The position numbers and the translations under genes were made by a program. The notes beneath the pieces are model-generated. The model was not told the DNA's origin. It worked only from the letters and a program-made list of their open reading frames with translations, and ran no database searches. A DNA stretch of 64,000 nt from Candidatus Levybacteria bacterium GW2011_GWA1_37_16 (GTDB lineage Bacteria; Patescibacteriota; Microgenomatia; Levybacterales; UBA12049), in contig CALRGR010000003.1 in the NCBI GenBank assembly GCA_943357985.1, forward strand, positions 6,496 to 70,495, written 5' to 3'. This document shows, piece by piece, positions 3,552-54,674 of this stretch (within the stretch, counting starts at the first letter, position 1; every line of letters begins with the position of its first letter).

Positions 3552-3567
3552 CTAAACGCTATACGCT

Positions 3568-39327: not shown

Positions 39328-40335
39328 TCATTTTATAAGAGCTATGTAAAGACCCATTATGGCAAATAAAAATCCCAAAAGCCAGGATCGCATGACAATC
39401 TTTGGCTCTTCCCAACCTCGTTTCTGAAGATAAAGATGAAGCGGTGCAACCGGAAAAATTTTTCGTCCTAGATATCTCTTTCCAAGAAGCTGAATTAAAG
39501 AAGAACCAACTTCTAAAATAAGAACTCCTCCAATAAATCCAATTGCTATTATTTTTCCTGTTAAAAGACCTATAACGGCAATGCTTGCTCCCAATGCAAG
39601 AGAACCTACATCCCCGAGCCAAATTCTTGCAGGATAAATATTAAAGTACAAAAATGCAGCAACGCTTCCCATAAGAATGGCTATAAAAATTCCGAGTGAT
39701 TTATCATATTGATTTGCGGAAATTGTTAAAAAAGCACCAAGCGCAATAAGCAGAAGACCACTTGCCTGTCCATCAAGACCGTCGGCAATATTAAAAGCGT
39801 TTGCAAAAGAAACAATAATAAAAGCGGCAAGAGGAATAAAGAAAATGCCAATAACTGCAAGCCCAAAGCCTTTTATAAAAATAAAATCATACCCAAGCTG
39901 GGAATAAAGAATAAAGGCAATAATAAAAGCCAAAATCCATTGAATCGCAAATTTATACCTAAATCTAAGACCAAAGAATCCTTCTTTTTTGTCGCTTAGT
40001 TTTTTAAAATCATCATATAAACCAAGAGCGCCAAAGCCTAAAAGAGTAAAGAGAACTACAAATATCTGCCAAAGATTAAAATCCACGTTTAAAAGACCGT
40101 AAGCCCAAAGAGTAAGTATAGAAACAACAATTATTATAAGAATTCCGCCTCCAAACGGAGTGCCTGTTTTCCAAGCATTAAATTTATCAAAATAGGGAGT
40201 TGGTTTATTAAAGAGGTCGCGGGTAACTTGCTTCTGACGCCTTAATTTTATTTTATATAAAAAATCAATAAACGGAATAAGCAAAATACCGGTTATAAAA
40301 GCAGACAAAAGTGTAAGTCCCAAAAATTGCGCCAT
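39328..40335 (-). CDS. mraY: Phospho-N-acetylmuramoyl-pentapeptide transferase
   Basis: Motifs NAFNIADGLDG and WLGDVGSLALG, with ten TM helices. Confidence 0.9.
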   Translation of the reverse strand: MAQFLGLTLLSAFITGILLIPFIDFLYKIKLRRQKQVTRDLFNKPTPYFDKFNAWKTGTPFGGGILIIIVVSILTLWAYGLLNVDFNLWQIFVVLFTLLGFGALGLYDDFKKLSDKKEGFFGLRFRYKFAIQWILAFIIAFILYSQLGYDFIFIKGFGLAVIGIFFIPLAAFIIVSFANAFNIADGLDGQASGLLLIALGAFLTISANQYDKSLGIFIAILMGSVAAFLYFNIYPARIWLGDVGSLALGASIAVIGLLTGKIIAIGFIGGVLILEVGSSLIQLLGKRYLGRKIFPVAPLHLYLQKRGWEEPKIVMRSWLLGFLFAIMGLYIALIK

Positions 40336-40498
40336 AAAAGGGTATTATACTCCTAAAGATGAGACTGCAGCAAGCTTACTTCTGCTTTTTTTGTTTCTTT
40401 TTCTCTTTCTTGGGTTTGGAAAACCTTTCAGCCATGTATTTATTTAATACCAATTTTGTCCTTATTGCAACAACCAAATTTATGCTATTATAGTTTCT

Positions 40499-41035
40499 AT
40501 GGAAGAGAAATGTCCAAAATGCGGTTCGGCCTTGTCTCCTATTACGGAGACAGCAACAGGCCGCAAGCTTCAAAGGTGCTCTAAGGGCTCTTGGAATCCC
40601 GAAACAAAACAGAATGAAGGCTGTGACTATGTATTATGGATTCAGGCAGAAGATGAAAAGCTAGATGAAAAATGCCCCAAGTGCGGAAATCCACTGGTCA
40701 TGGCGCAAACACGCTTTGGAAAGAAAATGAAAAAGTGTTCAACCAATGTCTGGAATAAAGATACAAAAAAAGCAGAGGGCTGTGACTTTATAGAATGGAT
40801 TAACGGCACAACAAAAGAACTTGATGAAGATTGTCCAGAATGCGGAAAGAAGCTTGTTCTTTATACAACCTCAACAGGAAAAAAGATGAAAAAGTGTTCA
40901 ACCAGTGGCTGGGACAGGGAAAAAAAGGTTACAACGGGCTGCACATATGTCCAATGGCTTAAACCAAGTGAGTATCAATCAAAAGACGAACCAAACGGAG
41001 AAGAGTTTTTACCCCCTGAATCCCAAGCAAACTAG
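40499..41035 (+). CDS. Stand-alone protein built from three tandem topoisomerase-type C4 zinc-ribbon modules
   Basis: Three ~58-aa repeats. Each carries CP(K/E)CG, about 15 intervening residues, then KC and GC (e.g. EKCPKCGNPLVMAQTRFGKKMKKCSTNVWNKDTKKAEGCDFIEW). This resembles the C-terminal zinc ribbons of topoisomerase I and YrdD-type proteins. Confidence 0.55.
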   Translation: MEEKCPKCGSALSPITETATGRKLQRCSKGSWNPETKQNEGCDYVLWIQAEDEKLDEKCPKCGNPLVMAQTRFGKKMKKCSTNVWNKDTKKAEGCDFIEWINGTTKELDEDCPECGKKLVLYTTSTGKKMKKCSTSGWDREKKVTTGCTYVQWLKPSEYQSKDEPNGEEFLPPESQAN

Positions 41036-41730
41036 AAAGGGATGTCTGAAGTTGTTGACTCGATACTTTCAAAGGATTTTCTATAAATGCAAAGCCTGCA
41101 CGTTTCAGACGGTTTTGGCAAATCACCATTTAGAACTTTAGAAATCTCATTAACGAATTTTAAAAATCCATCCATATCTTCCTCTATTGGATGCCATTTA
41201 GGAGATGTAGTAAATACAAATTTTCCGTCTTTATGCTCAATTGCGTCCGGTGAAACGCTAACTAGTCCGATTCTTGAAACTTTAATAGGCTTACCTTCTG
41301 CGGGATTTTCCAAAGCATATTTATAAGCATGCAGTTGACTTGAAAACTTTTTGATTTGCTCTTCATCTGGCTTTGTTATTTTAAAATCTATAACCGAGTA
41401 TGTACCATCTGCAAGTTTAGTTAAAACATCAAAACGTCCACTTATATAACAGTCTTCTGAGCCTTTTATTGGCTGGGATTTTAAAAACCCTTCCTGAATT
41501 TCAATTATTCCCTCTGGCAAATCCGGATGAATATCTTTTAAGCTTTTTCCCATAACAGAATTTTGTAAAAGACTATTCATGTGAGTAAAAATTGCAGGGA
41601 AAGCGCCGGAATGAGGAGGAATACCAAGTTTTACTTTTTGATAGAAACAAAACTTACAATCCTCCCAAAGATACTTGAAGTCGGAAGGGGATAATTTATA
41701 TTGCTTCTGTGCTTGCTCCATGAAAACCAA
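41032..41730 (-). CDS. Cas4/RecB-like PD-(D/E)XK nuclease with flanking Cys pairs
   Basis: Motif II GRFDVL, motif III IDFKITK (D-x-K), and a QLHAYKYAL (Q-x3-Y) motif. Cys pairs lie at the N-terminus (CKFC) and C-terminus (CRLC). No CRISPR array is present. Confidence 0.6.
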   Translation of the reverse strand: MVFMEQAQKQYKLSPSDFKYLWEDCKFCFYQKVKLGIPPHSGAFPAIFTHMNSLLQNSVMGKSLKDIHPDLPEGIIEIQEGFLKSQPIKGSEDCYISGRFDVLTKLADGTYSVIDFKITKPDEEQIKKFSSQLHAYKYALENPAEGKPIKVSRIGLVSVSPDAIEHKDGKFVFTTSPKWHPIEEDMDGFLKFVNEISKVLNGDLPKPSETCRLCIYRKSFESIESTTSDIPF

Positions 41731-41749
41731 TTATACCACTACTCTATCT

Positions 41750-42880
41750 CTAAAGGGGCGGCTCAAGTTCTAGGGTTTTAATTTCCGGGAGTGACTTACC
41801 TATTATTCCCTGCAAATCTCCATACATTCCATGAGTACTGTCTAAAACTTTTCTTATTTCTTTTTCCTGCCTTGCCCATTTGGAATTAAACCATCTTTTT
41901 TCTCTTTCTAATTCGTCCTGCAAATTTCCAAAACCCTCAACAACTGCCTCAACCCTATGCTTAAATTCAGTACCCGTTAAGTATTTATACAGAACCTCCA
42001 TCTTTTCATTCTTTCCCTCTCCATTTGACCTTTCATGATTTAGACTTACCAAGTTATACCGCAAAGAAAGCGCAAGTGGAACTACAAACTTCCATGTAGT
42101 TATCCAAACTCCATCTTTGTAAGTAAAAGAATCTAAGAATTCCGGCTTATTTATTGTGACAAGGATTGCCAAATCTGACTTTTTAGCTCTTTGATCTTCT
42201 TTTAATTTTGCAATCCAGCCATTTTGCCACTGAGCATTTTTAGATTCCCAAAGAATTGTCCCGCAACTTCTTCCCAATTTATCTGTCACTTCATGAACAA
42301 TATCCGCTCCCCTTTCCCCTTTTTTAACTTCAAGAATATTATCCTGTGGAAATTCACTTTTTAGAATTCTTTCGAGTTCTAACTCCATTACTTCTCCTTG
42401 TGTTTGCTGAGAGCCTTGTTCCATTTTGGTTTTAAGCTCTTCAAGTTGTTTTAGGGTATCTGTAAGTTTTTTGTCCTTTTCCAAATCTTTGAATTGATGT
42501 TCATCTTCCGACTGCTTTCTGACTTCTTTTCTAATCTTCTCCTCCTCATCCATTATTTTTTGCTTCATTTCCAATTCCCTCTCTTCATCTTTGCGTCTTA
42601 AGGCTCTCATTTCTTCAAGAAGTTTGTCTAATTTTTCCGTGAGGCTTTTATTTCTATCTTTTTCTTCTGTGTTTTCTTTTTTTAAAGTTTCGAGGGATTG
42701 CTCAAATTCTTTTCCGACTTTCTTTTTAGCGACTTCTTCTGCTGCCAATTTTGTATCTTCGAGTTCTTTTTTGTGCTTTATTTCCAGCGTGAGCAAAACT
42801 TGTTCTTCTATCTGATGAGTTAAAGCTTCCGATACTTCAATTTCTGCCCCACACTTTTTACACTTTATAACATTATTCAT
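41750..42880 (-). CDS. DUF2130/RmuC-like protein: N-terminal CxxC knuckle, long charged coiled coil, C-terminal PD-(D/E)XK-like nuclease domain
   Basis: N-terminal MNNVIKCKKCGAEIEV, then a ~200-aa E/K-rich coiled coil. The C-terminal region carries GERGADIV and ILWESKN (E-x-K) motifs. It is 19 bp upstream of, and co-oriented with, the Cas4-like gene. Confidence 0.5.
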   Translation of the reverse strand: MNNVIKCKKCGAEIEVSEALTHQIEEQVLLTLEIKHKKELEDTKLAAEEVAKKKVGKEFEQSLETLKKENTEEKDRNKSLTEKLDKLLEEMRALRRKDEERELEMKQKIMDEEEKIRKEVRKQSEDEHQFKDLEKDKKLTDTLKQLEELKTKMEQGSQQTQGEVMELELERILKSEFPQDNILEVKKGERGADIVHEVTDKLGRSCGTILWESKNAQWQNGWIAKLKEDQRAKKSDLAILVTINKPEFLDSFTYKDGVWITTWKFVVPLALSLRYNLVSLNHERSNGEGKNEKMEVLYKYLTGTEFKHRVEAVVEGFGNLQDELEREKRWFNSKWARQEKEIRKVLDSTHGMYGDLQGIIGKSLPEIKTLELEPPL

Positions 42881-42896
42881 CTTGAAAGTTAATTAT

Positions 42897-42925
42897 AGCA
42901 CGGGGACTTGGCGGGGTTTTTATTT
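42897..42925 (+). repeat. Direct repeat copy 1 (GCACGGGGACTTGGCGGGGTTTTTATTTT)
   Basis: Near-identical to a copy at 43234-43261. The consensus is GGGGAYTTGGCGRGGTTTTT, preceded in both copies by ATTATA(G/T)CACG. Together they flank a gene remnant. Confidence 0.4.
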
Positions 42926-43023
42926 TAAGAAGCGTTTTGGAAAAGCGTACTATACAAAAGTGCATCTTCTGCAGCTTCTGGTTTATTTTCTTTTCTAATG
43001 TTTTGAATCTTACTAAGCTATTT

Positions 43024-43200
43024 AATTAAATAAGGTTTTAATTCTTTATTGTCTATTTCAGCTCTTCTCTTTAAAGCTTCTAAAAATCTTTCTGTTATAA
43101 CATCAGAGCCTCTATAATAACCCAATGCTACTCGTTTTAAATCAAGAGCGATAGCGCCTAAAACAGCTTTATTTTTATCTGATTTTGTAATTATCCTCTG
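43024..43200 (-). pseudogene. Start-less C-terminal gene remnant (about 59 codons; ...AVLGAIALDLKRVALGYYRGSDVITERFLEALKRRAEIDNKELKPYLIK*)
   Basis: Open frame with no ATG/GTG/TTG start, and an in-frame stop immediately upstream. It lies between the two direct repeats. Confidence 0.25.
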
Positions 43201-43233
43201 ACTTTCAAAATATTATATCACGATATTTATTTC

Positions 43234-43261
43234 CTGGGGATTTGGCGAGGTTTTTGCTTTT
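43234..43261 (+). repeat. Direct repeat copy 2 (CTGGGGATTTGGCGAGGTTTTTGCTTTT)
   Basis: Pairs with the copy at 42897-42925. It lies just upstream of a putative TTGACA-17-TATTAT promoter for the 43306 gene. Confidence 0.4.
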
Positions 43262-43305
43262 ATAAATTTGACAATAAATAAGCAAATGACTATTATAGGT
43301 CACCT

Positions 43306-43755
43306 ATGATACACGAAGCCCCCAAAAGAACATCAGAGCAAATTGCTGCGGGTTTAGTTGCTCAAGCACTAACAGCTCAACAAGAAGGCCTAGAAAAGGA
43401 AATTCCTGTATATCTAAAAGTTTCTATAGACTCACCCTCACTCGCTGCCAGATTTAAAGTCCCTGATATTTCAGGCAATCCTATATTGGGAGACATGCTC
43501 GATAGATTGTTAGTTGTAAATGACGATTTCTCAGTGTCATACGTGACTGGTTTTAATTCTTACGATGGCCATAAATATGAGCACTGGATAACTCCTTCCA
43601 AAAGATATCCAGGATTATTTACTATTACTGAATTCGCGATGAAAGGTAGACAAAGAGTAGCCGAAAGAGTTGGTATTTTAGTCAGCGGGACTAATTTAAT
43701 AGAATTTCAAAATTGGTCACATTTTTTCTACAACGTTATTCAGAAGGAAGCCTAA
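43306..43755 (+). CDS. Hypothetical protein (149 aa, soluble, no recognisable motifs)
   Basis: ORF with a plausible upstream promoter. It is the last gene of the accessory segment before glmS. Confidence 0.4.
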   Translation: MIHEAPKRTSEQIAAGLVAQALTAQQEGLEKEIPVYLKVSIDSPSLAARFKVPDISGNPILGDMLDRLLVVNDDFSVSYVTGFNSYDGHKYEHWITPSKRYPGLFTITEFAMKGRQRVAERVGILVSGTNLIEFQNWSHFFYNVIQKEA

Positions 43756-43758
43756 GTT

Positions 43759-45522
43759 TTATTTCACAGTAACGCTTTTGGCGAGGTTACGGGGCTTGTC
43801 CGGATCTAAATTAAGGTCGACTGCCATATAGTAAGCAAGTAGCTGAATTGCAACAATTTGCGCAATATAAGATGCTTCCTTTATATCTTTTACTTGCAAG
43901 AAATAATCAAACACAGGCTGATTTTTGTCTGCAATTCCAATTATTATTCCCCCTCTACTTTTAATTTCAATTGCGTTTGAAATTATTGACTCAAAGCTAT
44001 CATCATTTGGGGCAAATACAATAACAGGCGTGCCTTTGGAAATAAGAGCAATTGTCCCGTGTTTTAATTCCCCACCTGCCAGGCCTTCTGTTGGCACATA
44101 GCTTACTTCTTTTATCTTCAAAGCTGCCTCTAGTGCCGATGGATAAGAAACTCCTCTGCCGATTACATAGATATTTGACGCAATCGAAAGAAACTTTGCA
44201 ACTTGCTTGATTTGGGCCGAGTTTTTTTTCTCAAGTATTCGATCAATCTCATCTGCAGCCAGAAGCAATAGCTTTTTCGCGTCCGCAGTTTTTTCTACCA
44301 TTGCAAAAACTAACATTAGAAGAACGGAAAGTTTTGCAATGTATGCTTTTGTTGATGCAACTGCTTTTTCAGGTCCTGCGTTTAGAAGAATTTTAAAGTC
44401 TGCCATTCTGTAAATTGAAGATCCTAAAACATTTGTTATGGCAACAATCTTACTTCCTCTTACCTTTGCCCTATTTAATGGCTCTATAACATCAATAGTC
44501 TCTCCTGACTGAGACAGAGCAATAACTAAGCTTTCTTTATTTAGAAAATGTTCAAGGTAATTAAACTCGGATGCAACCGCGGTATTAACATGCGTTTCTG
44601 CAATTTTTGAAAAAAGGTATGTGCCAGTTAATCCTGCATGAAAAGCAGTTCCGGCTCCAATAAAGTATGTTCCTCTGGCTTTTTTTATAAGTTTTGAAAG
44701 AGCATTTATTTCATCTTCATAGTTTTCTGCAATATTTCTTATAACTAGCGGCTGCTCATAAATTTCTTTTATCATAAAATGAGGAAATTTACCCATACTT
44801 GATAGTTCAAATTTCCAAGTTACAGTTTCTGGCACAACTTCAAGCTGCTTACCAGAGGGGACCGAAATTAGCTCTATATCCTTACCTAAAATAACCATTT
44901 CATAATCTTTTAGGAAAATTACTTTTTTTGTTTTTTCTATAAAACTTGAAATATCGGAGGCCAGATAAAATTCGTCCTTTCCAAGACCTACAACCAAAGG
45001 AGAACCGTTTTTGACAGCTATAATTTCGCTTGAAGGAGCATATGCAATAACAATTGCATTAAGTCCTTTTAATTTATTGAAAGATTTTCTAACTGAAGTT
45101 GCAAATCCGCTGCTGCCCTTAAGATTTTCTTCAATAAGATGAGGAATAACTTCCGTATCGGTTTCTGAGACAAACTTATGTCCTTTTTTGATAAGTTCTT
45201 CTTTAAGCTGTTCGAAGTTTTCAACAATACCGTTGTGAACTACTGCAATTTCCTTGCGGCAATCAAGATGAGGATGTGAATTTGCAACAGTTACGCCACC
45301 GTGAGTTGCCCAGCGGGTATGACCAATTGCTAAATTGCTTTTTGGCAAATTCACACTTGCCCCTCCAATTTTACCAACGTGTTTATCAACTGCAAGATTT
45401 TTGCCTTTTTTAACTGCAATTCCCCAAGAATCGTATCCTCTATATTCAAGAATTTTTAAACCTTCGAACGCTATATTAGCAGCGTCATTTTTATTACCGA
45501 TATAAGCAAATATTCCACACAT
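43759..45522 (-). CDS. glmS: Glutamine--fructose-6-phosphate aminotransferase
   Basis: N-terminal nucleophile MCGIFAYIG, two SIS domains, and the C-terminal ...VK. Confidence 0.95.
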   Translation of the reverse strand: MCGIFAYIGNKNDAANIAFEGLKILEYRGYDSWGIAVKKGKNLAVDKHVGKIGGASVNLPKSNLAIGHTRWATHGGVTVANSHPHLDCRKEIAVVHNGIVENFEQLKEELIKKGHKFVSETDTEVIPHLIEENLKGSSGFATSVRKSFNKLKGLNAIVIAYAPSSEIIAVKNGSPLVVGLGKDEFYLASDISSFIEKTKKVIFLKDYEMVILGKDIELISVPSGKQLEVVPETVTWKFELSSMGKFPHFMIKEIYEQPLVIRNIAENYEDEINALSKLIKKARGTYFIGAGTAFHAGLTGTYLFSKIAETHVNTAVASEFNYLEHFLNKESLVIALSQSGETIDVIEPLNRAKVRGSKIVAITNVLGSSIYRMADFKILLNAGPEKAVASTKAYIAKLSVLLMLVFAMVEKTADAKKLLLLAADEIDRILEKKNSAQIKQVAKFLSIASNIYVIGRGVSYPSALEAALKIKEVSYVPTEGLAGGELKHGTIALISKGTPVIVFAPNDDSFESIISNAIEIKSRGGIIIGIADKNQPVFDYFLQVKDIKEASYIAQIVAIQLLAYYMAVDLNLDPDKPRNLAKSVTVK

Positions 45523-45523
45523 A

Positions 45524-45991
45524 TTATTCCTTTACTAAATCGACCAACTTGTTAAGATTTTTAATCACTGCGTCTGCCTGGTAGTCCGTTGGCTCGTCTC
45601 CTTTCCAAATTCTTTTTTCTCTATCTATAAAAACCGTAAAAACTGCAGGCGAATGTTTTTTAACCTTTTCAAGAATAGATGACCTGTCATCAACCAAGAA
45701 AATTTGATGGTCTTTATATTTCTCTATTACCTGAGGAATTGGCGTAGTTTTTTCCAGGAAGATATGAATGTCTTCCTCGTTGAAGTTTTTCAATATATCA
45801 GTCTTGAGAAGTTTATTTCGCTGAAGCTCTATGTTTCCTTCTGAAAATATTCCAAGAGTCGCATAGGTCGCTATTTCCACCAAAACTCCAACAACTTCTT
45901 CATACAAAGTGTGCTTTGTAAGATCGCTTTCTTTAAAAAGGTCTGTGTCAAACAAAGTGTAGTCAATGTCAAAGAGAACTATTTTTTTCAT
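45524..45991 (-). CDS. HAD-superfamily hydrolase (small)
   Basis: Motif I LFDIDYTLFD (DxDxT) and a downstream Asp-rich motif IV (FLVDD). Confidence 0.6.
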   Translation of the reverse strand: MKKIVLFDIDYTLFDTDLFKESDLTKHTLYEEVVGVLVEIATYATLGIFSEGNIELQRNKLLKTDILKNFNEEDIHIFLEKTTPIPQVIEKYKDHQIFLVDDRSSILEKVKKHSPAVFTVFIDREKRIWKGDEPTDYQADAVIKNLNKLVDLVKE

Positions 45992-46001
45992 AATTTGTAG
46001 A

Positions 46002-47258
46002 TTATTTCTTCTCTATAATCTCCTGAAATTTCGCGTAGTAAGTAACATCATCTTCAATGTTTTTAAAAACACTGGTAGACGGACCAATTGTGACGTTATT
46101 ACCAATTATGACACCAGGCATTATAGAAACTTTTATTCCAATTTTTACATTGTTTCCAATTATCGCGCCCAGGCTGATAAGGCCAGTGTCTACTTTTGAA
46201 CCTTTTACTACTGCCTGAATATTTTTCCTGTCTATTTTTCTGTTTGCGGTTGTAAAGGCAGAACCAATTTTACAACTTGAACCAACAATTGAATCTCCTA
46301 CAAATCCTGAATGAATGCTCGTCCCTTTCATAAAAAGGCTGTTTTTAATTTCTGTAAACGCTCCAACCGATACTCCCTCTTCTAAATCTGACTCATTTCT
46401 AATAAGAGAATTTGTTCCAATATATACATCTTTACCAATGTAAGCTGGTCCCTTAATTTTTGCTCCTTCAAGGATTTGCGCTCCGCTTTCAATAATTACA
46501 TTATCATCAATCTCAGCGCTCTTTGAAATTTTTGCGCTTTCGTCTATCCTTCCCACAATATCTTTCATCAGTAAATTTTTTGTTGCAAGCAAATCCCAAG
46601 GGTACTTTAAAGTTGATGTTTCAAATTCTATCTGTCCAACATCAATTGAATTTTCCTTTACGTAAAGCTCAAGTACCTCTTGTTCAAAATTAAATTCGGA
46701 CATTTTTACTTGTCTTACCGTCTCAATAATATCCGTTGATAATAAAAATGCATTAACTAAACACAGATCCGATGGTTCCTCTCCCTTCTTAGGCTTTTCA
46801 ACTATGCGTACGAGCTTTCCGTCTTTAACAACAACTACTCCATAATCCCAAGGATTTTCTCTTTTATTTACAAGGATTACGCCCTTGGACCCACCTTTTC
46901 GAGCTTTTAACAATTCGTAAACAAGTTTTTTACTGGTAACGTGATTTCCACCAATGAGAATAAAATCGCCATCGAGGAATTTCTCTGCATTAAGAAGAAC
47001 CTCTCCCATTCCCAATGCTTCTTTTTGCTCAATGTAGTTTATGAAGAGGCCGGAGGCCGAACCATCACCAAAATAATTCTTAATTACTCCGTCTTCGCTT
47101 ACTCTTAAAATTATGTCTTTTATTCCTGCTTCTTTTAATCCCTCAAGCGTATATTCAAGAATTGGCTTTCCCATAATTTTACTCATGGTTTTATGAGCCA
47201 CTCTTGAGTATGGATAAAATCTGCTTGAATAACCGCCTGCTAAAACAACTGCTTTCAT
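46002..47258 (-). CDS. glmU: Sugar-1-phosphate nucleotidyltransferase fused to a left-handed beta-helix acetyltransferase (GlmU-like)
   Basis: Nucleotidyltransferase motif MKAVVLAGGYSSRF and C-terminal hexapeptide repeats (IGNNVKIGIKVSIMPGVIIGNNVTIG). Start set at MKAVVLAGG to avoid overlap with murA. Confidence 0.65.
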   Translation of the reverse strand: MKAVVLAGGYSSRFYPYSRVAHKTMSKIMGKPILEYTLEGLKEAGIKDIILRVSEDGVIKNYFGDGSASGLFINYIEQKEALGMGEVLLNAEKFLDGDFILIGGNHVTSKKLVYELLKARKGGSKGVILVNKRENPWDYGVVVVKDGKLVRIVEKPKKGEEPSDLCLVNAFLLSTDIIETVRQVKMSEFNFEQEVLELYVKENSIDVGQIEFETSTLKYPWDLLATKNLLMKDIVGRIDESAKISKSAEIDDNVIIESGAQILEGAKIKGPAYIGKDVYIGTNSLIRNESDLEEGVSVGAFTEIKNSLFMKGTSIHSGFVGDSIVGSSCKIGSAFTTANRKIDRKNIQAVVKGSKVDTGLISLGAIIGNNVKIGIKVSIMPGVIIGNNVTIGPSTSVFKNIEDDVTYYAKFQEIIEKK

Positions 47259-47259
47259 A

Positions 47260-48588
47260 TTATTCTTTAATCCTTTTAATATCTGCTCCCAAACTCTTAA
47301 GTCTTTTTTCAAAATTTTCATAACCGCGGTCCAAATGTTCAACCCCAAAAACTACACTTTCGCCCTTTGCAGAAAGTGCAGCCAAAACTAAAGTTGCGCC
47401 TGCTCTTAAATCTGATATTTCTACAACCGCATTATGAAGATTTGTGGGTCCCGTAATTTTAGCAGCATGCTTAAACTCCGCTTTATTGTCAGAAAGGTTA
47501 AAATTGTAAACTTCTTGTGGATTTTTAACTTCTGGATTAAAAAGCTCTATCTTTGCTCCCATTTTTAAAAGCTGATTAACATAGTTAAATCTACTTTCAT
47601 AAACTGTTTCATGAATTACTGACTCTCCTCTGGCTTTAGTCATAAGAACTGCCCATGGACCCTGCCAGTCAGTCATGAAGCCGGGATAAAAAGATGTTGT
47701 AGCATCTGTTGCCTTAAGATCATCCTTATAGAAAAATCTTAAATCTTTTCCTTTTTCCTCAAATTGTCCTCCAGCCTGCTTGAATTTTTCTAAAAATTCT
47801 ACAAGCTCCTGTTTCTTTACGTCTTTTACCGTTATATCTCCCTCTGTTATAATCGCCGCAATTGCAAAGGTGACTATTTCATTTCTGTCAGGCGCGATTG
47901 AAAATCTTGTACCATGAAGTTTTTCTACACCTTCAACTACAATTTTTCTTTTGGAAATTCTTTTAACTCTTGCTCCCATTCTATTTAGAAATTCAATTAA
48001 TTCATCAACTTCCGGTTCCTGCGCTGCATTATCTAAAACCGTCTTTCCTTTTGCCAAAACTGCTGCCATAAGAAGAGTCTCAGTGCCCGTGTGCGTGTTT
48101 TTCTCGAATCTATAAGCGGCCCCCTTAAGCCCGTTGCTTGCTTTAATATGAAAGAATCCATCTTTACTGTTATATGTTGCGTTAACTCCCATTTTTTTAA
48201 GACCTAAAATAGTTCTGTCAATTGGCCTGGCTCCAATTCTGCAACCTCCTGGGTTTGGAATTATCGCGCTATTTGTACGTGCTAAAAGCGGAGCAACAAA
48301 CATAGCGGAAGTTCTTACTTCCGCAGCAGCTTGCAACGCAATTTTTTCCTTTTTGAATTCTTCCATTTGAATATAAGCGGTATGATCTTGAATTCTCACC
48401 TTTCCACCCAACTCTTTAACGATATCTATCATTACCTGAAAATCCGAAATGTGAGGAATATTATCAATAATGACTTCTTCTGCTGTAAGACATGATGCCA
48501 CCACAACTTTAAGAGCCACATTTTTGGCACCTGAGATAACTACGCTTCCTTTAAGTTTTTTTCCGCCTTTTATAACAAATTTGTCCAT
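47260..48588 (-). CDS. murA: UDP-N-acetylglucosamine 1-carboxyvinyltransferase
   Basis: N-terminus MDKFVIKGGKKLKGSVVISGAKNVALK and the active-site Cys region (GGCRIG). Confidence 0.9.
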   Translation of the reverse strand: MDKFVIKGGKKLKGSVVISGAKNVALKVVVASCLTAEEVIIDNIPHISDFQVMIDIVKELGGKVRIQDHTAYIQMEEFKKEKIALQAAAEVRTSAMFVAPLLARTNSAIIPNPGGCRIGARPIDRTILGLKKMGVNATYNSKDGFFHIKASNGLKGAAYRFEKNTHTGTETLLMAAVLAKGKTVLDNAAQEPEVDELIEFLNRMGARVKRISKRKIVVEGVEKLHGTRFSIAPDRNEIVTFAIAAIITEGDITVKDVKKQELVEFLEKFKQAGGQFEEKGKDLRFFYKDDLKATDATTSFYPGFMTDWQGPWAVLMTKARGESVIHETVYESRFNYVNQLLKMGAKIELFNPEVKNPQEVYNFNLSDNKAEFKHAAKITGPTNLHNAVVEISDLRAGATLVLAALSAKGESVVFGVEHLDRGYENFEKRLKSLGADIKRIKE

Positions 48589-49982: not shown

Positions 49983-51175
49983 AACTTCTTAAGGGCTTTT
50001 GCTACTGCTTCATATTCATCCCATGGTTCTTCTCCATTGCCTAAATTCATTGATTTTTCATGACTTTTTCCCGTTAGGATAACCAAATCTCCCTTTCTTG
50101 CTATTCTAATAGCCTCATCAATTGCTTTCTGTCTGTCAGAAATTTTAATAAGAGTTTTGTTCTTGATTCTCTTGTCTTTATTTCTAATTCCCTTTTCTAT
50201 ATCATCCGCAATTTTATCTACGCTTTCTCCGCGGGGATCTTCACTTGTCAAAATAATAACATCTGAAAATCTGTCTGAAGCATCCCCCATAAGAGGTCTT
50301 TTTGTACTGTCTCTTTTTCCTGCGCTTCCAAAAACATGAATAATCCTTCCATTAGTCTCTTTTCTTGCCAATTTCAAGAGTTTCTCAAAAGAGTTAGGAG
50401 TGTGCGCAAAATCAATCATAACTCTAAATGGACCTTCAAAAACTATTTCTTGCCTTCCTTTTGGAAGTTTAAAACTCTCAACTGCTTCTTCGATATTTTC
50501 CTTAGAAATTCCCAGAACAGTACAGACAGAAGCTGCTGCCAATATGTTATAATTATTAAATTGTCCGAAAACATTCTTTTCAAAAGAAAAATCCTTTATT
50601 GAAAAATCAGCATCTTTTGAAATCCCATAAGTCAGAAATCTGGAGGAAGCTTTATCTTTTGAAATTATCTTAAAAGAATCATCATCAATGTTTGTTATGG
50701 ATATTTTTGCTTTTTTTAAAAGTTTAAGCTTTGTTGAAACATAATTTTCATAAGTTTTGTGGTAGTCCAAATGCTCATTTGTAACATTTGTTAAAACTGC
50801 GCCTTCAAAATTTATTCCCCATACTCTATGCTGATCTAAAGCATGAGACGTTACTTCCAAAACTACGTATTTTTTGCGCTTCTCTTTAAGATTTGAAATT
50901 CTTTTAAAAAGTTTTTGAATTGTCCACTCGGATGGAGTTGTTACATGAAGACCTATGTCTTCATAAAGCCCTTCAACAGATGCTCCCACCGTTGAAATCA
51001 TTGAGGAATTTAATCCCGCCTTGGTTAGGATGTGATGAATTAGGTTTACAGTAGTTGTTTTACCGTCTGTACCGGTCACTCCAACAACTATCAAATCTTT
51101 GGAAGGGAAACCGTACCAAATATTAGCAACTATTGCGCTAAGCAAATGATAAATATTTTTAATTTCTTGAAGCAT
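49979..51175 (-). CDS. murE: Mur ligase, MurE-like (UDP-MurNAc-L-Ala-D-Glu--diamino acid ligase), lacking the typical N-terminal domain
   Basis: P-loop VGVTGTDGKTTT, motifs HVTTPS and DYHKTYENYVSTK, at about 400 aa. Confidence 0.6.
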   Translation of the reverse strand: MLQEIKNIYHLLSAIVANIWYGFPSKDLIVVGVTGTDGKTTTVNLIHHILTKAGLNSSMISTVGASVEGLYEDIGLHVTTPSEWTIQKLFKRISNLKEKRKKYVVLEVTSHALDQHRVWGINFEGAVLTNVTNEHLDYHKTYENYVSTKLKLLKKAKISITNIDDDSFKIISKDKASSRFLTYGISKDADFSIKDFSFEKNVFGQFNNYNILAAASVCTVLGISKENIEEAVESFKLPKGRQEIVFEGPFRVMIDFAHTPNSFEKLLKLARKETNGRIIHVFGSAGKRDSTKRPLMGDASDRFSDVIILTSEDPRGESVDKIADDIEKGIRNKDKRIKNKTLIKISDRQKAIDEAIRIARKGDLVILTGKSHEKSMNLGNGEEPWDEYEAVAKALKKL

Positions 51176-52497
51176 TATAAAGTTTCCTCTCTTTTTTTGT
51201 CCCAAAATTGCCCACGCCTGCAAAGTTTTGCTTTATCAGCTGAATTTTTCAAAAGCATCTCGGTAACACGCTCTAAGAATAGTGTATTTTGCGAACTCTT
51301 AATAAGAACTACATCTCCTTCTTGTATATTATCAAGGATAAAGTCCCGTCCTTGCGAAAAAGTTTTAAAGCTTAAGTTTTCAAGTCCATTTTTTTTAAGA
51401 ACAGGAGCCACATACTGTTGCATCATTGGACCAACTAAAATTACAAGATCGCAGGTTTTAAGAATTTTATCAGCAACTGTCTTGTGAATTTTCTCCGAAA
51501 TCATACCAAGCTCCCTCATGTCTCCCAAAATTGCTACCTTGCGTCTTTTTCCTGAAACTTTTTTAAGCAAATCTAAAATATCCAGTATTGGCGGTAAAGT
51601 CGCGTTATTATAAGAAGAGTCAATAATCGTTGTGTTTTTTATACCATAAAACACGGAAAGTCTGCCCGGAGGAAGCTTGAAATTTCGTTCAAGCGAGACA
51701 ATTGCATCATTTATAGAAACTCCAAGATATAAAGCAATTGATATTGCGGACATAAATGAACGGGCATAATGATCAGAAAGAGGTCTATCGAGCTTTAACT
51801 TAAAACTTTCTCCAAGATGATTTACATTAAAGCTGAACTTGTTAAGAGTTACTTCAAGATTATCCGCATAAAAGTCTGCGTTCTCTTTTTCAATCGATAT
51901 TGTTGATTTTCTAGCCATAACCGTGGCTGATTCTTTCTCAATTAATTCATCATCAATATTCACAACAGCAAATCCGTCTCCAGGAAGAGATTTTAGAAGA
52001 AGCATTTCCTGCTCCATAGTCTTTTTTAGAATTTCATCTTCCGTTTTTGCTTTATTTTCAAAATAAACGCTATGCTCAAAAGAAATGTTTGTGAGAGTTG
52101 CTATCTGGGGTTTTACAATTTTTAGTAAATAACTCATGTTTTTAGGCTCATCCGGACCGTCAATTCCCATTTCACAAATATAAACGTCATATTGCTTCCA
52201 GTTTATAAAAATACCTAAAAATGAGGTTAGAATAATACGAATCCAGTCTAAAATTGTGTAATTTCCCGGATTTATATCCAAAATATCCAAAGGGATGCCT
52301 GTTTCGCTGTTTTTGCCCTGACCTTGTTTCACTTTATACTTTGAAGTAAGAGTTGCGGCCACAATTGAAGATAAAGAGCTTTTTCCGCTTGCACCTCCAA
52401 TACCCACAACAATAGGTCTTATTTTTATAAGCTGAACTTTTGCAATCATACGCAGATACCAAAGCACAAAAGAGACAACAAACTTTCTCAAAACCAT
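51175..52497 (-). CDS. murF: Mur ligase family protein, MurF-like by position; atypical P-loop GIGGASGKSS
   Basis: Mur-ligase central domain blocks (ICEMGIDGP, TLTNISFEH) and a position after murE in the dcw order. Confidence 0.45.
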   Translation of the reverse strand: MVLRKFVVSFVLWYLRMIAKVQLIKIRPIVVGIGGASGKSSLSSIVAATLTSKYKVKQGQGKNSETGIPLDILDINPGNYTILDWIRIILTSFLGIFINWKQYDVYICEMGIDGPDEPKNMSYLLKIVKPQIATLTNISFEHSVYFENKAKTEDEILKKTMEQEMLLLKSLPGDGFAVVNIDDELIEKESATVMARKSTISIEKENADFYADNLEVTLNKFSFNVNHLGESFKLKLDRPLSDHYARSFMSAISIALYLGVSINDAIVSLERNFKLPPGRLSVFYGIKNTTIIDSSYNNATLPPILDILDLLKKVSGKRRKVAILGDMRELGMISEKIHKTVADKILKTCDLVILVGPMMQQYVAPVLKKNGLENLSFKTFSQGRDFILDNIQEGDVVLIKSSQNTLFLERVTEMLLKNSADKAKLCRRGQFWDKKREETL

Positions 52498-52574: not shown

Positions 52575-53618
52575 ATGAGCCCGCTTGATGAAAATCAACT
52601 TCAGATTGAGATTAAAAAAGAGGGACTGCGCCATATTACGGATGAAATACCCGGCTTTATGAGGCAAAAACTTGGTATAAACTTCACTTATTATGACGAG
52701 GATCTCAAAAGAATAAAAGATAAAGTCGTAATTAGCCGGATTGAGAGCTTAGCAATTCCGCCAGCCTGGAAAAAAGTCTGGATTTGTGCTTCAGAAAACG
52801 GATATCTTCAAGCAACAGGCACTGATGACAAAAGACGTAAACAGTATATTTATCATCCGGAATGGGTAAAAGCAACTCAAACAAGCAAATTTGAAAGACT
52901 GACGGATTTTGGCCTCAGCCTTCCAATAATCCGCTCGAAAATCGATTATGACCTGCACCAAAAAGACATGGATAAGAAAAGAATCCTAGCTACTGTCGTT
53001 TGGTTGCTTGAGAAAACTTTTATCCGCATTGGAAATGAAGAATACGCAAGAAATAATGAAAGCTTCGGGCTAACAACTTTAAGAAACCGTCACGCAAAAG
53101 TAAGAGGAGACCAAATTTCATTTAAATTCATAGGGAAAAGCGGTATTGAGAATGTAATCGAAATATCAAACCCAACAATTGCCAAAACAATCAGAAAATG
53201 TATTGAACTTCCGGGCTACGAGCTTTTTCAATTTATAGATGATAGCGGAGAGCGTCATGTAATTGATTCTGCGGATGTTAACGAATTTTTGAAAGAAATA
53301 ACTAAAAATGAATTTACTACAAAAGATTTTAGAACTTGGGGAGCAACCAATTTATCAGCAAGACACCTTTATAAATTAGGAGGCGCGGAGAGTGAGAAGA
53401 CGATCAAGCAAAATATTATGGACACCATCAAGGAAGTCGCAAGTCAGCTTAACAATACCGTATCGGTTTGTAGAAATTATTACATTCATCCGCAAGTTTT
53501 GAAGAGCTACGTCAAAAAGACTCTAGTTCCCCACTTTGCAGGTTTTGAAAAATCCAGAAAATCAATAAAAGGACTCTCCTGGAACGAAACCGCCCTAATC
53601 AAACTCCTACAAAATTAG
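52575..53618 (+). CDS. Type IB DNA topoisomerase (bacterial/poxvirus-type TopIB)
   Basis: Conserved blocks GLTTLRNRH, KDFRTWGAT and the catalytic Tyr context SVCRNYYIHP. Confidence 0.8.
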   Translation: MSPLDENQLQIEIKKEGLRHITDEIPGFMRQKLGINFTYYDEDLKRIKDKVVISRIESLAIPPAWKKVWICASENGYLQATGTDDKRRKQYIYHPEWVKATQTSKFERLTDFGLSLPIIRSKIDYDLHQKDMDKKRILATVVWLLEKTFIRIGNEEYARNNESFGLTTLRNRHAKVRGDQISFKFIGKSGIENVIEISNPTIAKTIRKCIELPGYELFQFIDDSGERHVIDSADVNEFLKEITKNEFTTKDFRTWGATNLSARHLYKLGGAESEKTIKQNIMDTIKEVASQLNNTVSVCRNYYIHPQVLKSYVKKTLVPHFAGFEKSRKSIKGLSWNETALIKLLQN

Positions 53619-53642: not shown

Positions 53643-54344
53643 ATGGGAACAATGAGAGATTTTAATAGAGGCGGTAACTCGAGACCAAGACGAAGCTATG
53701 ATAATAGAGGATCTTCTGGTGGAAACGAAGAAAGACAAACATTTAAAGCAATATGCGCAGATTGTGGCCGCGACTGTGACCTTCCATTTGAACCCCGTGG
53801 CAACAGACCAGTATATTGCAGAGATTGTTTCAAAAAGCATACACCGGAAGGCTCAAGCGGAGATAGATATGAATCAAGAGGAGATTCCAGAGGGGGTCCA
53901 CGTGAAGATTCAAGGCGATCAGGTGGCGATAGACCAATGTTTAGCGCAGTATGCGACAACTGCGGCAAAACTTGCCAGCTTCCCTTTGAACCAAGACAGG
54001 GAAAAGAAGTTTTCTGCAGTAGATGTTTTGAAGATAAAGAAAAAGGAATAGACATGACGCAAAGAAAAAGCAATAGCAATGGCACGCAAGCACAATCACA
54101 ACCAAACCTTCAAATGGACGCAATAAATGCAAAGCTTGATAAAATATTAAATCTTTTATCCAACACAAAAGCATTAAAAAATGACGAGAAAGCTTCCAAA
54201 GTAGTAGAAGATGAGATAGAACAACTAGTAAAAACAATTAAAGCTGAAAAATCAATCAAACCTAAAAAGAAAGTCAAAGATCCTGAGCAAAGCCGAAGCG
54301 TAGCAGCAGAAACAGAAATTCCAATAGAATCCCCAACGGAATAG
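53643..54344 (+). CDS. RGG/Arg-Gly-rich protein with two repeated CxxC...CxxC zinc-ribbon modules and a lysine-rich C-terminal coiled coil
   Basis: Duplicated module: CADCGRDCDLPFEPRGNRPVYCRDCF and CDNCGKTCQLPFEPRQGKEVFCSRCF. The region is locally GC-rich because of GGN/CGN codons, which produces many spurious overlapping ORFs on both strands. Confidence 0.5.
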   Translation: MGTMRDFNRGGNSRPRRSYDNRGSSGGNEERQTFKAICADCGRDCDLPFEPRGNRPVYCRDCFKKHTPEGSSGDRYESRGDSRGGPREDSRRSGGDRPMFSAVCDNCGKTCQLPFEPRQGKEVFCSRCFEDKEKGIDMTQRKSNSNGTQAQSQPNLQMDAINAKLDKILNLLSNTKALKNDEKASKVVEDEIEQLVKTIKAEKSIKPKKKVKDPEQSRSVAAETEIPIESPTE

Positions 54345-54475: not shown

Positions 54476-54592
54476 TTTAAAAAGGAATATCGGAAGTAGA
54501 ATTTGGGTCCACCTCAAAGGTTTTTCTGTATATGCAAAGCCTGCAATCTTCATAAAGATAAGCAAAGTCGGAAGGTGATAGCTTGTACATAT
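54476..54592 (-). pseudogene. Internally deleted remnant of a paralogue of the Cas4-like nuclease (N-terminal 15 aa fused to C-terminal 22 aa)
   Basis: Translates to MYKLSPSDFAYLYEDCRLCIYRKTFEVDPNSTSDIPF*. Compare the intact gene at 41032-41730: ...QYKLSPSDFKYLWEDCKFC... and ...ETCRLCIYRKSFESIESTTSDIPF*. The DNA is also similar (tgcaggctttgcat...). Confidence 0.6.
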
Positions 54593-54596
54593 TTAT

Positions 54597-54674
54597 GTAT
54601 TACGCCTTTCGACTAGTCCTGAGCGAAGCCGAATGACAAAATCAGAAGGAGATAATTTATACTGTTGCGCCATA
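54597..54674 (-). pseudogene. Second N-terminal fragment of the same nuclease family (MAQQYKLSPSDFVIRLRSGLVERRNT*)
   Basis: Translated by hand from the minus strand. It shares the QYKLSPSDF block with both the intact gene and the adjacent remnant. Confidence 0.45.

Follow-up and report, generated by a model that had tools for sequence, protein, structure and literature searches.

The mraY-glmS junction

The locus is a variable spot among the cell-wall genes of a Levybacteria genome (candidate phyla radiation) and was analysed within a stretch of 64 kb, referred to here as the window. On both sides of the junction the dcw genes are tightly packed and co-oriented on the minus strand, as described in an earlier note on this DNA, and all the features that the note had named were found at the coordinates it gave. 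Beside mraY, a gene on the plus strand (40499-41035) encodes a YrdD-like protein of 178 aa with three tandem four-cysteine zinc ribbons of the topoisomerase type (Pfam Zn_ribbon_Top1, 38.8 bits for a cut-off of 32); the gene contains an internal repeat of 159 nt. The protein matches the C-terminal zinc-ribbon region of E. coli TopA (4RUL residues 662-743, E 1e-3) and is presumed to bind ssDNA. The gene is convergent with a gene for a Cas4-like nuclease, and their stop codons overlap. Of five close relatives, all but one (L165, L167, L168 and L169) likewise have it as a divergent neighbour of mraY, and its identity of 83-88% there tracks that of MraY (82-87%). A lysine-rich ORF of 19 codons located between the two genes (40376-40435, minus strand; MAERFSKPKKEKKKQKKQK) is found at the matching position in L165, L168 and L169 with one or two substitutions. 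The small ORF is part of the mraY-syntenic block and not of an insertion, and the zinc-ribbon gene, previously placed inside the insertion, is likewise a conserved mraY neighbour.

In L166, glmS directly adjoins mraY, and in L169 the gene order is glmS-zinc ribbon-mraY. The extra block therefore measures about 2.7 kb (41036-43758). The proposed insertion of 3.4 kb was thus correct in that a block is missing from the same junction in these two relatives, but it was too large and wrongly included the zinc-ribbon gene. The junction is different in each relative examined (L165 to L169). The block abuts glmS on one side and the zinc-ribbon gene on the other, with no spare DNA. Its GC content is 0.32-0.42 versus 0.33-0.39 on the flanks, and no GC or skew discontinuity was found at the block. 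Neither the ORF list nor profile searches revealed an integrase, transposase or relaxase among the block genes, and no att-like or end repeats were found at its edges, observations which speak against a single mobile module. The window contains no CRISPR-like repeat array, the genes scanned include no cas gene, and no PADLOC system model matches the locus. The earlier statements that the nucleases are not accompanied by a CRISPR and form no named defence system agree with these results.

Upstream of the two nuclease genes lies the pseudogene of a small protein of about 90 aa (42925-43212, minus strand), which has no start codon and carries an in-frame TAG at 43018-43020. Intact homologues of 90-93 aa occur in L017 (740-1021) and L155 (110-382), in both cases preceded by a gene for a DUF5674 protein of 112-120 aa. 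The remnant is indeed flanked by direct repeats, identified by alignment on the plus strand: one copy (42902-42929; GGGGACTTGGCGGGGTTTTT...) adjoins the 3' end of the pseudogene and immediately precedes the -10 element of the DUF2130 gene, and the other (43236-43263; GGGGATTTGGCGAGGTTTTT...) lies immediately 5' of the pseudogene. They share a core of 20 nt, at 42902 and 43236, which extends to about 28 nt. The window holds two matches where 0.02 are expected, and none of 100 shuffles reached two. Across 2.6 Mb of related loci the repeat recurs only in L004, whose sequence is that of the window itself. Next to glmS and convergent with it, the ORF of 149 aa (ORF149; 43306-43755, plus strand) has no match in Pfam, NCBIfam, PADLOC or PHROG. 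However, eight full-length homologue clusters (29-51% identity) among 1.84 billion representatives mark it as a genuine gene of a rare family.

The two predicted nucleases and the history of the Cas4-like gene

The larger nuclease gene (41750-42880, minus strand) encodes a DUF2130 protein of 376 aa (Pfam PF09903, E 9.4e-58). From the N terminus, the protein consists of a CxxC beta-hairpin, a coiled coil of about 160 residues and a PD-(D/E)XK core, and it ends in a helical bundle. It had been called RmuC-like. This holds for architecture alone, because the Pfam RmuC profile does not match it. Only four papers in the literature searched mention DUF2130, none of them with a functional account.

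The second gene (41032-41730, minus strand) encodes a RecB-family PD-(D/E)XK nuclease resembling Cas4, EXO5 and AdnAB (PDDEXK_1, E 4.5e-9, 37 bits for a cut-off of 22). It starts either at a TTG, giving 232 aa, or at the ATG at 41721 used in the public annotation, giving 229 aa; accordingly, it follows the co-oriented DUF2130 gene at 19 or 28 bp. Among 19 homologues, D101, D115-x-K117 and Q132...Y136 are invariant, as are four cysteines (C25, C28, C211 and C214) in the pattern CX2C...CX2C. The AlphaFold2 model (pLDDT 82) has AdnA/AdnB, human EXO5, the Cas4 protein SSO0001 and MGME1 as its top Foldseek matches. Profile, alignment and predicted structure thus agree with the earlier note that both proteins have nuclease folds, and their catalytic motifs are intact.

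Reading of the sequence reveals an extended -10-like element before each gene on the minus strand: TGcTATAAT (42892-42900), 11 nt upstream of the DUF2130 ATG, and TGgTATAAT (41730-41738), 8 nt upstream of the Cas4-like ATG, in the 19-28-bp gap after DUF2130. TAnAAT occurs 12-17 nt before the ATG of 9 of 60 gene starts, compared with 3.4% of background windows. Since each gene, the Cas4-like one included, has such an element of its own, co-transcription in the operon proposed earlier is no more than plausible.

The Cas4-like gene had been taken for foreign DNA. Its distribution does not support this and marks it as a resident of the Levybacteria division and cell-wall cluster. It lies between ftsI and topoisomerase IB/murF in L203 and L204; in L011 it is likewise found between ftsI and topoisomerase IB, with the latter and mur genes downstream; and in L170 it precedes Mur ligase genes. 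Its closest relative is found in L203 (85-86% identity). In the window, a tblastn search with the Cas4-like proteins of L203 and of the window itself, together with the ORF list, located an in-frame relic of 37 codons (114 bp; 54477-54590, minus strand) between ftsI and topoisomerase IB, the place occupied by the gene in L203, L204 and L011. The relic consists of the N-terminal 16 aa fused to the C-terminal 21 aa (MYKLSPSDFAYLYEDC|RLCIYRKTFEVDPNSTSDIPF); 28 of 31 bases of its C-terminal block are identical in the DNA alignment, and a second N-terminal fragment (MAQQYKLSPSDF) is found at about 54638-54667. The intact copy is therefore now elsewhere, between glmS and the zinc-ribbon gene. The intact copy is of the FKYLW subtype and the relic reads FAYLY, closer to the L165/L011 subtype, an assignment that is ambiguous over 37 residues.

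In Levy-, Davies-, Woese- and Curtissbacteria, members of the Cas4-like family share 50-86% identity, and their 148 neighbour proteins show little enrichment in defence functions. Such conservation and so weak a defence neighbourhood would fit a housekeeping role better. Among the neighbours of individual copies are Mrr in L203, a BubE/ThiF/Multi_ubiq system in L165 and restriction-modification genes of Type I in L003.

Recurrence of the pair and its interpretation

Of the 75 metagenomic DUF2130 loci that could be evaluated, six have a co-directional Cas4-like gene next to DUF2130, overlapping it or up to 88 bp away. DUF2130 comes first in L091 and L099, and the Cas4-like gene in L086, L098, L100 and L104; in the last three the partner comes from another Cas4-like subfamily, with 27% identity and a PDDEXK_1 match at E 6e-10. 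These loci represent about four independent arrangements versus roughly 0.3-0.5 expected in 155 loci, an estimated Poisson P of about 0.002. Conversely, among 80 Cas4-like loci from species representatives there is no case of an adjacent DUF2130 gene (one lies at 9 kb), so that the two families for the most part function independently of each other. Co-occurrence of the two genes exceeds chance but is not obligate. The zinc-ribbon gene lies at most 10 kb from a Cas4-like gene in 5 of 80 loci (about two expected) and adjoins DUF2130 in 2 of 75, which is statistically a weak link to the nucleases.

DUF2130 is an accessory gene whose neighbours change from locus to locus. A gene for an OLD-family or related AAA_15 ATPase lies directly upstream of it in at least five loci (L092, L102, L131, L136 and L207; 43-77% identity). 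Of the closest DUF2130 relatives, that of L207 (77%) is beside HsdR-type and N6_Mtase/Eco57I restriction-modification genes, OLD, Replic_Relax and a gene resembling TrwB, and those of L205 and L085 (80%) are beside a helicase of 1558-1563 aa matching PADLOC PDC-S37 at 3.5e-66. Other neighbours are AAA_13 ATPases and, on plasmids, toxin-antitoxin genes, and more distant homologues are carried by 29 viral contigs and 45 plasmids. The suggestion of a mobile or defence setting is thus borne out for close homologues of DUF2130, but not by the block itself, which lacks mobility genes.

The account favoured here, with about even confidence, regards the segment not as one mobile cassette but as a composite patch, situated at a junction prone to rearrangement within the Levybacteria cell-wall and division supercluster and including a facultative pair of nucleases. 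Three layers may be distinguished. The zinc-ribbon gene and the 19-codon ORF would go with mraY by synteny; the Cas4/EXO5-like nuclease would be an old resident of the supercluster whose copy between ftsI and topoisomerase IB collapsed to the relic; and DUF2130 would be an accessory gene, here directly upstream of the Cas4-like one and close to the small pseudogene and the rare ORF149. Judged from sequence, the nucleases most likely form a facultative DNA-end-processing pair. DUF2130, with its N-terminal zinc knuckle, would probably dimerise via the long coiled coil and make endonucleolytic cuts. The Cas4-like enzyme, its N and C termini presumably stapled by a four-cysteine metal site, could then, acting as a 5'-to-3' single-strand exonuclease, resect the ends so produced. 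Pairing of the two genes appears facultative but recurrent, with OLD-family or AAA_15 ATPase genes as alternative DUF2130 partners. Both kinds of pairing make conflict with foreign DNA the likelier arena, recombinational repair being the alternative.

Adjacency could also arise from shared landing in variable regions, without functional coupling. A chance juxtaposition by genome shuffling, in which the nucleases and the zinc-ribbon protein act independently (for example, the Cas4-like protein as a housekeeping repair exonuclease and DUF2130 as a selfish or accessory nuclease), is consistent with the variability of the junction in all relatives examined, the ongoing decay seen in pseudogenes and relics, the promoter-like element of each nuclease gene, and the heterogeneous neighbourhoods of two families mostly found apart. 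It is nonetheless rather unlikely: adjacency is about tenfold above random expectation, arose in both orders and also with a non-orthologous Cas4-like partner, and the pairs are always co-directional and closely spaced. The same tight pairs, and the ATPase, restriction-modification, helicase, toxin-antitoxin, Mrr and BubE neighbours described above, could instead point to a dedicated, unnamed two-gene system against phages or plasmids, with DUF2130 as sensor or endonuclease, the Cas4-like enzyme degrading the target and OLD-DUF2130 as a sister system. This seems unlikely given the rarity of adjacency (0/80 and 6/75 loci), a Cas4-like family whose strong conservation and spread through the lineage are unusual for a defence gene and whose neighbours show few signs of defence, and PADLOC models whose sole hit to DUF2130 is a weak one, of LmuB to the coiled coil. 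Acquisition of the whole 3.4-kb segment as a mobile island, the view taken initially, is highly improbable. The block is missing in L166 and L169, and the possible difference in subtype between intact copy and relic could mean replacement by an incoming copy, but that difference is ambiguous, part of the segment is syntenic with mraY, and the seamless block carries none of the hallmarks sought. The facultative pair within a composite patch, recurring but neither a mobile cassette nor a named defence system, is a modest lead and not a discovery.

Comparison with known systems

The Cas4-like protein shares its fold, the motifs D, DxK and QxxxY and domain-stapling cysteines at both termini with the iron-sulfur RecB-family nucleases (Cas4, the AddB and AdnAB nuclease domains and human EXO5). 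A difference is that it stands alone, as a protein of 229 aa without a helicase partner. It also differs from Cas4 in scoring below the equivalog cut-off (29 versus 65 bits), in its genomic setting, devoid of array and cas genes within the scope given above, and in its CX2C...CX2C cysteines, the canonical Cas4 pattern being C...CX2CX5C.

The layout of DUF2130 genes downstream of OLD or AAA_15 genes resembles the OLD-based two-gene systems (Gabija GajA/GajB, P2 Old and PARIS AriA/AriB). The usual second component of these is, however, a UvrD-type helicase or AriB and not DUF2130, and in the window there is no OLD gene, the partner is the Cas4-like nuclease and PADLOC recognises no system. DUF2130 itself is comparable to RmuC (PF02646) and other coiled-coil PD-(D/E)XK proteins in having a long N-terminal coiled coil followed by the nuclease core, and both families have been listed as PD-(D/E)XK (Steczkiewicz et al. 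2012, PMC3424549). It is distinguished by its CxxC hairpin and helical bundle as well as by the lack of an RmuC HMM match.

Finally, the zinc-ribbon protein is similar to E. coli YrdD and to the C-terminal zinc ribbons of topoisomerase I as a stand-alone protein of about 180 aa with tandem four-cysteine Zn_ribbon_Top1 units, and the TopA region that it matches binds ssDNA in 4RUL. Unlike these, its gene has a fixed divergent neighbour, mraY, within a Levybacteria subclade.

Gene order at the mraY-glmS junction

The minus strand carries a long cell-wall and division supercluster that starts with mraZ, rsmH, ftsL and ftsI and continues with murF, murE, murC, murA, a glmU-like gene, a HAD-type gene and glmS. 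The segment under study (40336-43758) lies between the stop of glmS (43759) and the start of mraY (40335), and beyond it the cluster runs through mraY, ftsW, murG, ftsQ, ftsA and ftsZ. All features described for this interval in the earlier note are present: a triple zinc-ribbon gene (40499-41035, plus strand; Zn_ribbon_Top1, PF01396), a Cas4-like nuclease gene (41032-41730, minus strand; PDDEXK_1, PF12705) that converges on the former with overlapping stop codons, a DUF2130 gene (41750-42880, minus strand; PF09903, COG4487), a gene remnant (42925-43212) and an ORF call of 149 aa, ORF149 (43306-43755, plus strand). Rfam models matched nothing in this interval at E <= 1, and elsewhere in the 64 kb they detected just two tRNAs. 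The window comes from a Levybacteria genome (Microgenomates, candidate phyla radiation); its MraY, Cas4-like and DUF2130 proteins have their best matches among entries annotated as Levybacteria or Patescibacteria.

Two features of the wider cluster deserve mention. The genes for glmS, a HAD-type phosphatase-like protein, a glmU-like nucleotidyltransferase/hexapeptide protein and murA (43759-48588) are fused into the cluster ahead of mraY, an order shared by the related loci L166 and L169, so that these UDP-GlcNAc supply genes are cluster members in this lineage. Between ftsI and murF are embedded a gene for a zf_Tbcl_2 double treble-clef zinc-finger protein (53643-54344, plus strand) and one for a eukaryotic-type topoisomerase IB (52575-53618, plus strand), both running opposite to the surrounding genes; the topoisomerase gene has the same position in L166 and in three further related loci (L203, L204 and L011).

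The junction upstream of mraY is variable among five close relatives whose MraY proteins are 82-87% identical to that of the window. In L166, glmS directly adjoins mraY at a distance of 39 bp, and in L169 only the zinc-ribbon gene separates the two; an empty site thus exists in related genomes. Locus L168 has the zinc-ribbon gene before mraY, L167 an M10 peptidase gene and the zinc-ribbon gene, and L165 a ubiquitin-like (BubE/ThiF/Multi_ubiq) system, a Cas4-like gene, an M10 peptidase gene and the zinc-ribbon gene. Because the zinc-ribbon gene and a 19-codon ORF are conserved beside mraY, the extra DNA comprises only 41036-43758, about 2.7 kb. The insertion of about 3.4 kb proposed earlier is therefore upheld as a block absent from L166 and L169, but its extent must be reduced, the zinc-ribbon gene being syntenic. 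In L165, the relative with the closest MraY (87%), the ubiquitin-like conjugation set (Multi_ubiq, DUF6791/ThiF and BubE; 2311-4166) lies in the variable region before mraY, directly upstream of the Cas4-like gene, and a LexA-like repressor gene is found two genes upstream of the set.

In the earlier note the same block was said to look like a mobile module. No ORF or domain of an integrase, transposase or relaxase was found in 40336-43758. GC content is 0.32-0.42 inside and 0.33-0.39 outside, with no compositional break at the boundaries, and the skew is likewise unbroken. Moreover, 41036-43758 abuts both neighbours without spare sequence, and no repeats mark its boundaries, the sole significant direct repeat being internal, around the pseudogene. 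The reading as a mobile module is accordingly not supported, and in spite of the empty sites it is very improbable that the segment is a single mobile island.

The zinc-ribbon protein exceeds the PF01396 gathering score (38.8 bits against 32). It is YrdD-like, with three CPxCG...C...C units and a 159-nt internal repeat, and matches the ssDNA-binding C-terminal region of E. coli topoisomerase I (TopA; E 1e-3). Its identity to proteins of relatives, 83-88%, is in the same range as that of MraY. A role as third partner of the nucleases was rejected, since the counts do not rise above chance or lineage synteny: the gene lies within 10 kb of the Cas4-like gene in 5 of 80 loci (about 2 expected) and adjoins DUF2130 in 2 of 75, probably representing one lineage. 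The 19-codon lysine-rich ORF between the zinc-ribbon gene and mraY (MAERFSKPKKEKKKQKKQK; 40376-40435, minus strand) is kept with 1-2 substitutions in L165, L168 and L169; it could encode a genuine micro-protein or act as a leader peptide.

ORF149 is rare: 1.84 billion representatives include just eight clusters of homologues. The remnant, now a pseudogene, derives from a gene for a small protein of about 90 aa; it lacks a start codon and has an in-frame TAG. Intact versions follow a DUF5674 gene in the homologous loci L017 (424-1021) and L155 (110-717), a conserved two-gene cassette of which the window retains only the decayed second gene. The pseudogene is flanked by two imperfect copies of a direct repeat some 28 bp long (42902-42929 and 43236-43263), which occurs nowhere else in the window or in 2.6 Mb of related loci. 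Both copies lie upstream of -10-like elements at different spacings (4 and 18 nt); the unequal spacing and the lack of other copies led us to reject a shared regulatory box. A duplication scar or an operator is possible.

Two predicted nucleases

The DUF2130 protein clearly exceeds the Pfam PF09903 threshold (195.9 bits against 26.7, residues 133-373). Its AlphaFold2 model (pLDDT 71) begins with a small N-terminal hairpin, followed by a long coiled coil (helices 16-134 and 139-176), an alpha/beta core (181-262) and a helical C-terminus. Among 19 homologues, E163, D193 and E212-x-K214 are invariant and an N-terminal C7-x2-C10 pair is nearly so. The conserved acidic and lysine residues, together with a restriction-endonuclease-like fold, identify a PD-(D/E)XK core. 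The label "RmuC-like" given to the protein earlier should be dropped: the RmuC HMM (PF02646) gives no match, DUF2130 is the sole Pfam report at E <= 0.01, and the resemblance to RmuC is limited to architecture.

The Cas4-like protein passes PDDEXK_1 (37 bits against a gathering score of 22). In 19 homologues the D...DxK...QxxxY motifs (D101, D115-x-K117, Q132...Y136) are invariant, as are four cysteines (C25-x2-C28 and C211-x2-C214). Since PDB sequence searches gave nothing meaningful for the DUF2130 or Cas4-like profiles, fold searches were needed for both nucleases. The AlphaFold model of the Cas4-like protein (pLDDT 82) matches the nuclease domains of AdnA/AdnB, human EXO5, SSO0001 Cas4 and MGME1, with Foldseek E values of 1.6e-6 to AdnA and 8e-6 to EXO5 and SSO0001. 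HMM, motifs and RecB-like fold thus agree in assigning it to the PDDEXK_1/RecB-family nucleases.

A TGnTATAAT element lies 11 nt before the ATG of the DUF2130 gene and 8 nt before that of the Cas4-like gene. Across the window, 9 of 60 gene starts carry TAnAAT, compared with a background frequency of 3.4% of windows. The heads of other units, including mraY and murF, show the same -10-like pattern; TAnAAT or TGnTATAAT is found 8-14 nt upstream of the ATG of, for example, mraY (39328-40335), murF (51175-52497) and DUF2130 (41750-42880). The position of these elements, with no Shine-Dalgarno sequence intervening before the ATG, suggests that leaderless mRNAs are common at the heads of transcription units in this organism. 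The two nuclease genes may be co-transcribed, and each can probably also be expressed alone, apparently as a leaderless mRNA.

Distribution, recurrence and turnover of the two genes

Within Microgenomates the Cas4-like family is widely distributed: it comprises 584 clusters, and a search with two peptide patterns matched 108 species-level genomes. Its members share 50-86% identity across Levy-, Davies-, Woese- and Curtissbacteria, and a scan of viral contigs found no relatives. In 80 related loci, surveyed for homologues of window proteins rather than for cas genes, only cell-wall, division and zinc-ribbon proteins were found beside the gene. A PADLOC scan of 148 of its neighbours turned up only two cytosine methyltransferases besides generic matches.

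The closest relative (85-86% identical) is encoded in L203 between ftsI and topoisomerase IB/murF, where it adjoins an Mrr gene and an HTH gene; L204 has the same arrangement, and in L011 (66%) and L170 (84%) the gene stands just ahead of topoisomerase IB or Mur-ligase genes. At the position where L203, L204 and L011 hold an intact copy, between ftsI and the zinc-finger/topoisomerase IB genes, the window has a 114-bp in-frame mini-ORF of 37 codons (54477-54590, minus strand). In its product MYKLSPSDFAYLYEDC, the initial 16 residues of a Cas4-like protein, is joined to RLCIYRKTFEVDPNSTSDIPF, the final 21, and a further N-terminal fragment lies upstream at about 54638-54667 (minus strand). Because this relic occupies the junction that holds the gene in relatives, an ancestral copy must have decayed in place; the intact copy sits 13 kb away and may have arisen by relocation, duplication or replacement from another Levybacterium. 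Assignment of the relic to either of two Cas4-like subtypes was abandoned as ambiguous on 37 residues. Such decay, with an intact copy elsewhere, is a clean example of how genes turn over even in a cell-division cluster assumed to be rigid. Beside the relic, a 61-codon ORF (54722-54907, minus strand) has ends that resemble DNA methyltransferase termini (..LYLGDSLELMKKLP.. and ..LYNLTLGEIGVVE) and could be a second internally deleted relic, a fused methyltransferase remnant that Pfam did not confirm.

DUF2130 matched more than 4,700 clusters. The neighbourhoods of its nearest relatives differ widely; with these in view, an initial reading of both nucleases as vertically inherited housekeeping genes was dropped for DUF2130. 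In L205 and L085 (80% identical) it adjoins a MerR-type gene and a helicase of 1558-1563 aa that matches PADLOC PDC-S37 (E 3.5e-66). In L207 (77%) one flank consists of HsdR-type and N6_Mtase/Eco57I restriction-modification genes and an OLD-family nuclease gene, the opposite flank of Replic_Relax and TrwB-like genes. Homologues occur on 29 viral contigs, in Helicobacter prophages and on 45 plasmids. Some of the viral copies adjoin restriction subunits of Type I or Type III and an AAA_13 ATPase, and others lie close to DNA polymerase I; the plasmid copies are found near genes for ParA and relaxase or near toxin-antitoxin genes. DUF2130 is thus an accessory gene with changing partners.

One class of partner recurs. 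A gene for an OLD-family protein (AAA_15 with OLD-like TOPRIM) or a related AAA_15 ATPase lies directly upstream of DUF2130, co-directional and sometimes overlapping, in at least five loci (L092, 8368-11137; L102, 585-3237; L131, 2-1665; L136, 7982-11167; L207, 6167-9146), and PADLOC identified four OLD/GajA-like proteins among 148 DUF2130 neighbours. None of the PADLOC v2 models covers this two-gene arrangement. A 326-aa gene adjoining DUF2130 in viral contigs L179, L181 and L196, with seemingly Cas4-like motifs, was discarded as evidence, its identity being unconfirmed by Pfam, PHROGs, PADLOC, PDB or hhalign.

Loci anchored on DUF2130 were drawn from metagenomes; of 80, 75 were evaluable, being flanked on at least one side by 700 bp or more. 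A Cas4-like gene is immediately adjacent in 6 of the 75, always co-directional and from overlapping to 88 bp apart. As in the window, DUF2130 precedes its partner in L091 and L099, and the Cas4-like gene comes first in L086, L098, L100 and L104; in the last three it belongs to another subfamily (27% identical; PDDEXK_1 E 6e-10) and overlaps the DUF2130 start. When loci were anchored on the Cas4-like gene in 80 species-representative genomes, DUF2130 was adjacent in none and 9 kb away in one. Over all 155 loci the arrangements that count as independent number about 4, where 0.3-0.5 would be expected (Poisson P ~0.002, our own estimate, which assumes random gene order in genomes of 600-1000 genes and leaves the clustering tendency of accessory genes uncorrected). 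Adjacency is above chance and far from obligate. These counts bear on two rival explanations. A chance juxtaposition of independent genes, in which case the segment reflects ordinary genome shuffling only, would fit the Cas4-like-anchored loci; the excess of adjacent pairs speaks against it, and it is rather unlikely. A dedicated new defence system of DUF2130 and Cas4-like nuclease would account for the compact co-directional pairs; the 0 of 80 speaks against it, and it is unlikely.

Interpretation and relation to known systems

The best-supported reading, about as likely as not, is that the segment is a composite patch at a rearrangement-prone junction. The zinc-ribbon gene would be its syntenic part, the Cas4/EXO5-like exonuclease a resident of the cluster that has relocated, and the DUF2130 endonuclease an accessory addition, the latter two as a facultative, recurrent nuclease pair. 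To judge from the folds and from the characterised AdnAB, EXO5 and Cas4 enzymes, the coiled-coil DUF2130 protein would cut DNA endonucleolytically, leaving ends for the Cas4-like enzyme to resect in the 5'-to-3' direction. The company that DUF2130 keeps with OLD nucleases, restriction genes, plasmids and prophages tilts the role of such a composite pair towards conflict with foreign DNA; the conservation and quiet neighbourhoods of the Cas4-like gene tilt it towards repair.

A broader and doubtful proposal is that DUF2130 is a shared component of undescribed two-gene nuclease systems directed against invading DNA (Cas4-like with DUF2130, OLD with DUF2130), in which the coiled-coil nuclease would cut first and its partner destroy the target. 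If true, this would extend to candidate phyla radiation bacteria and beyond. The genomes of these bacteria are tiny and their DNA upkeep and defence have been little studied experimentally. DUF2130 is a large uncharacterised family on chromosomes, plasmids and prophages, for which the nuclease core, the recurrent pairs with a second nuclease and the restriction and defence neighbourhoods of the nearest relatives provide a testable hypothesis. The finding is a useful lead on this family and points neither to an obligate system nor to mobility.

Two statements of the earlier note, the absence of CRISPR and the lack of a named defence system, agree with the searches. No CRISPR-like repeat array was found within the 64-kb window and no Cas protein among 17 window proteins run through Pfam or NCBIfam. 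No system-specific model of PADLOC-DB v2.0.0 was hit by the DUF2130, Cas4-like, zinc-ribbon or ORF149 proteins: the search returned only LmuB for DUF2130 (E 4.6e-4, over the coiled coil), generic Cas4 models only for the Cas4-like protein, and no match for the zinc-ribbon protein or ORF149. The literature searched contains no description of DUF2130 pairing with Cas4-like or OLD genes. The Cas4-like protein itself differs from CRISPR-associated Cas4. It falls below the cut-off of the equivalog TIGR00372 (29.1 against 65 bits), and the PADLOC Cas4 models match only its C-terminal half (E 1.6e-8 to 1e-5). The iron-sulfur motif of Cas4 consists of four cysteines, C...CX2CX5C, and the C25-x2-C28 and C211-x2-C214 arrangement does not fit it. 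No named system matches the segment; its parts belong to known superfamilies.
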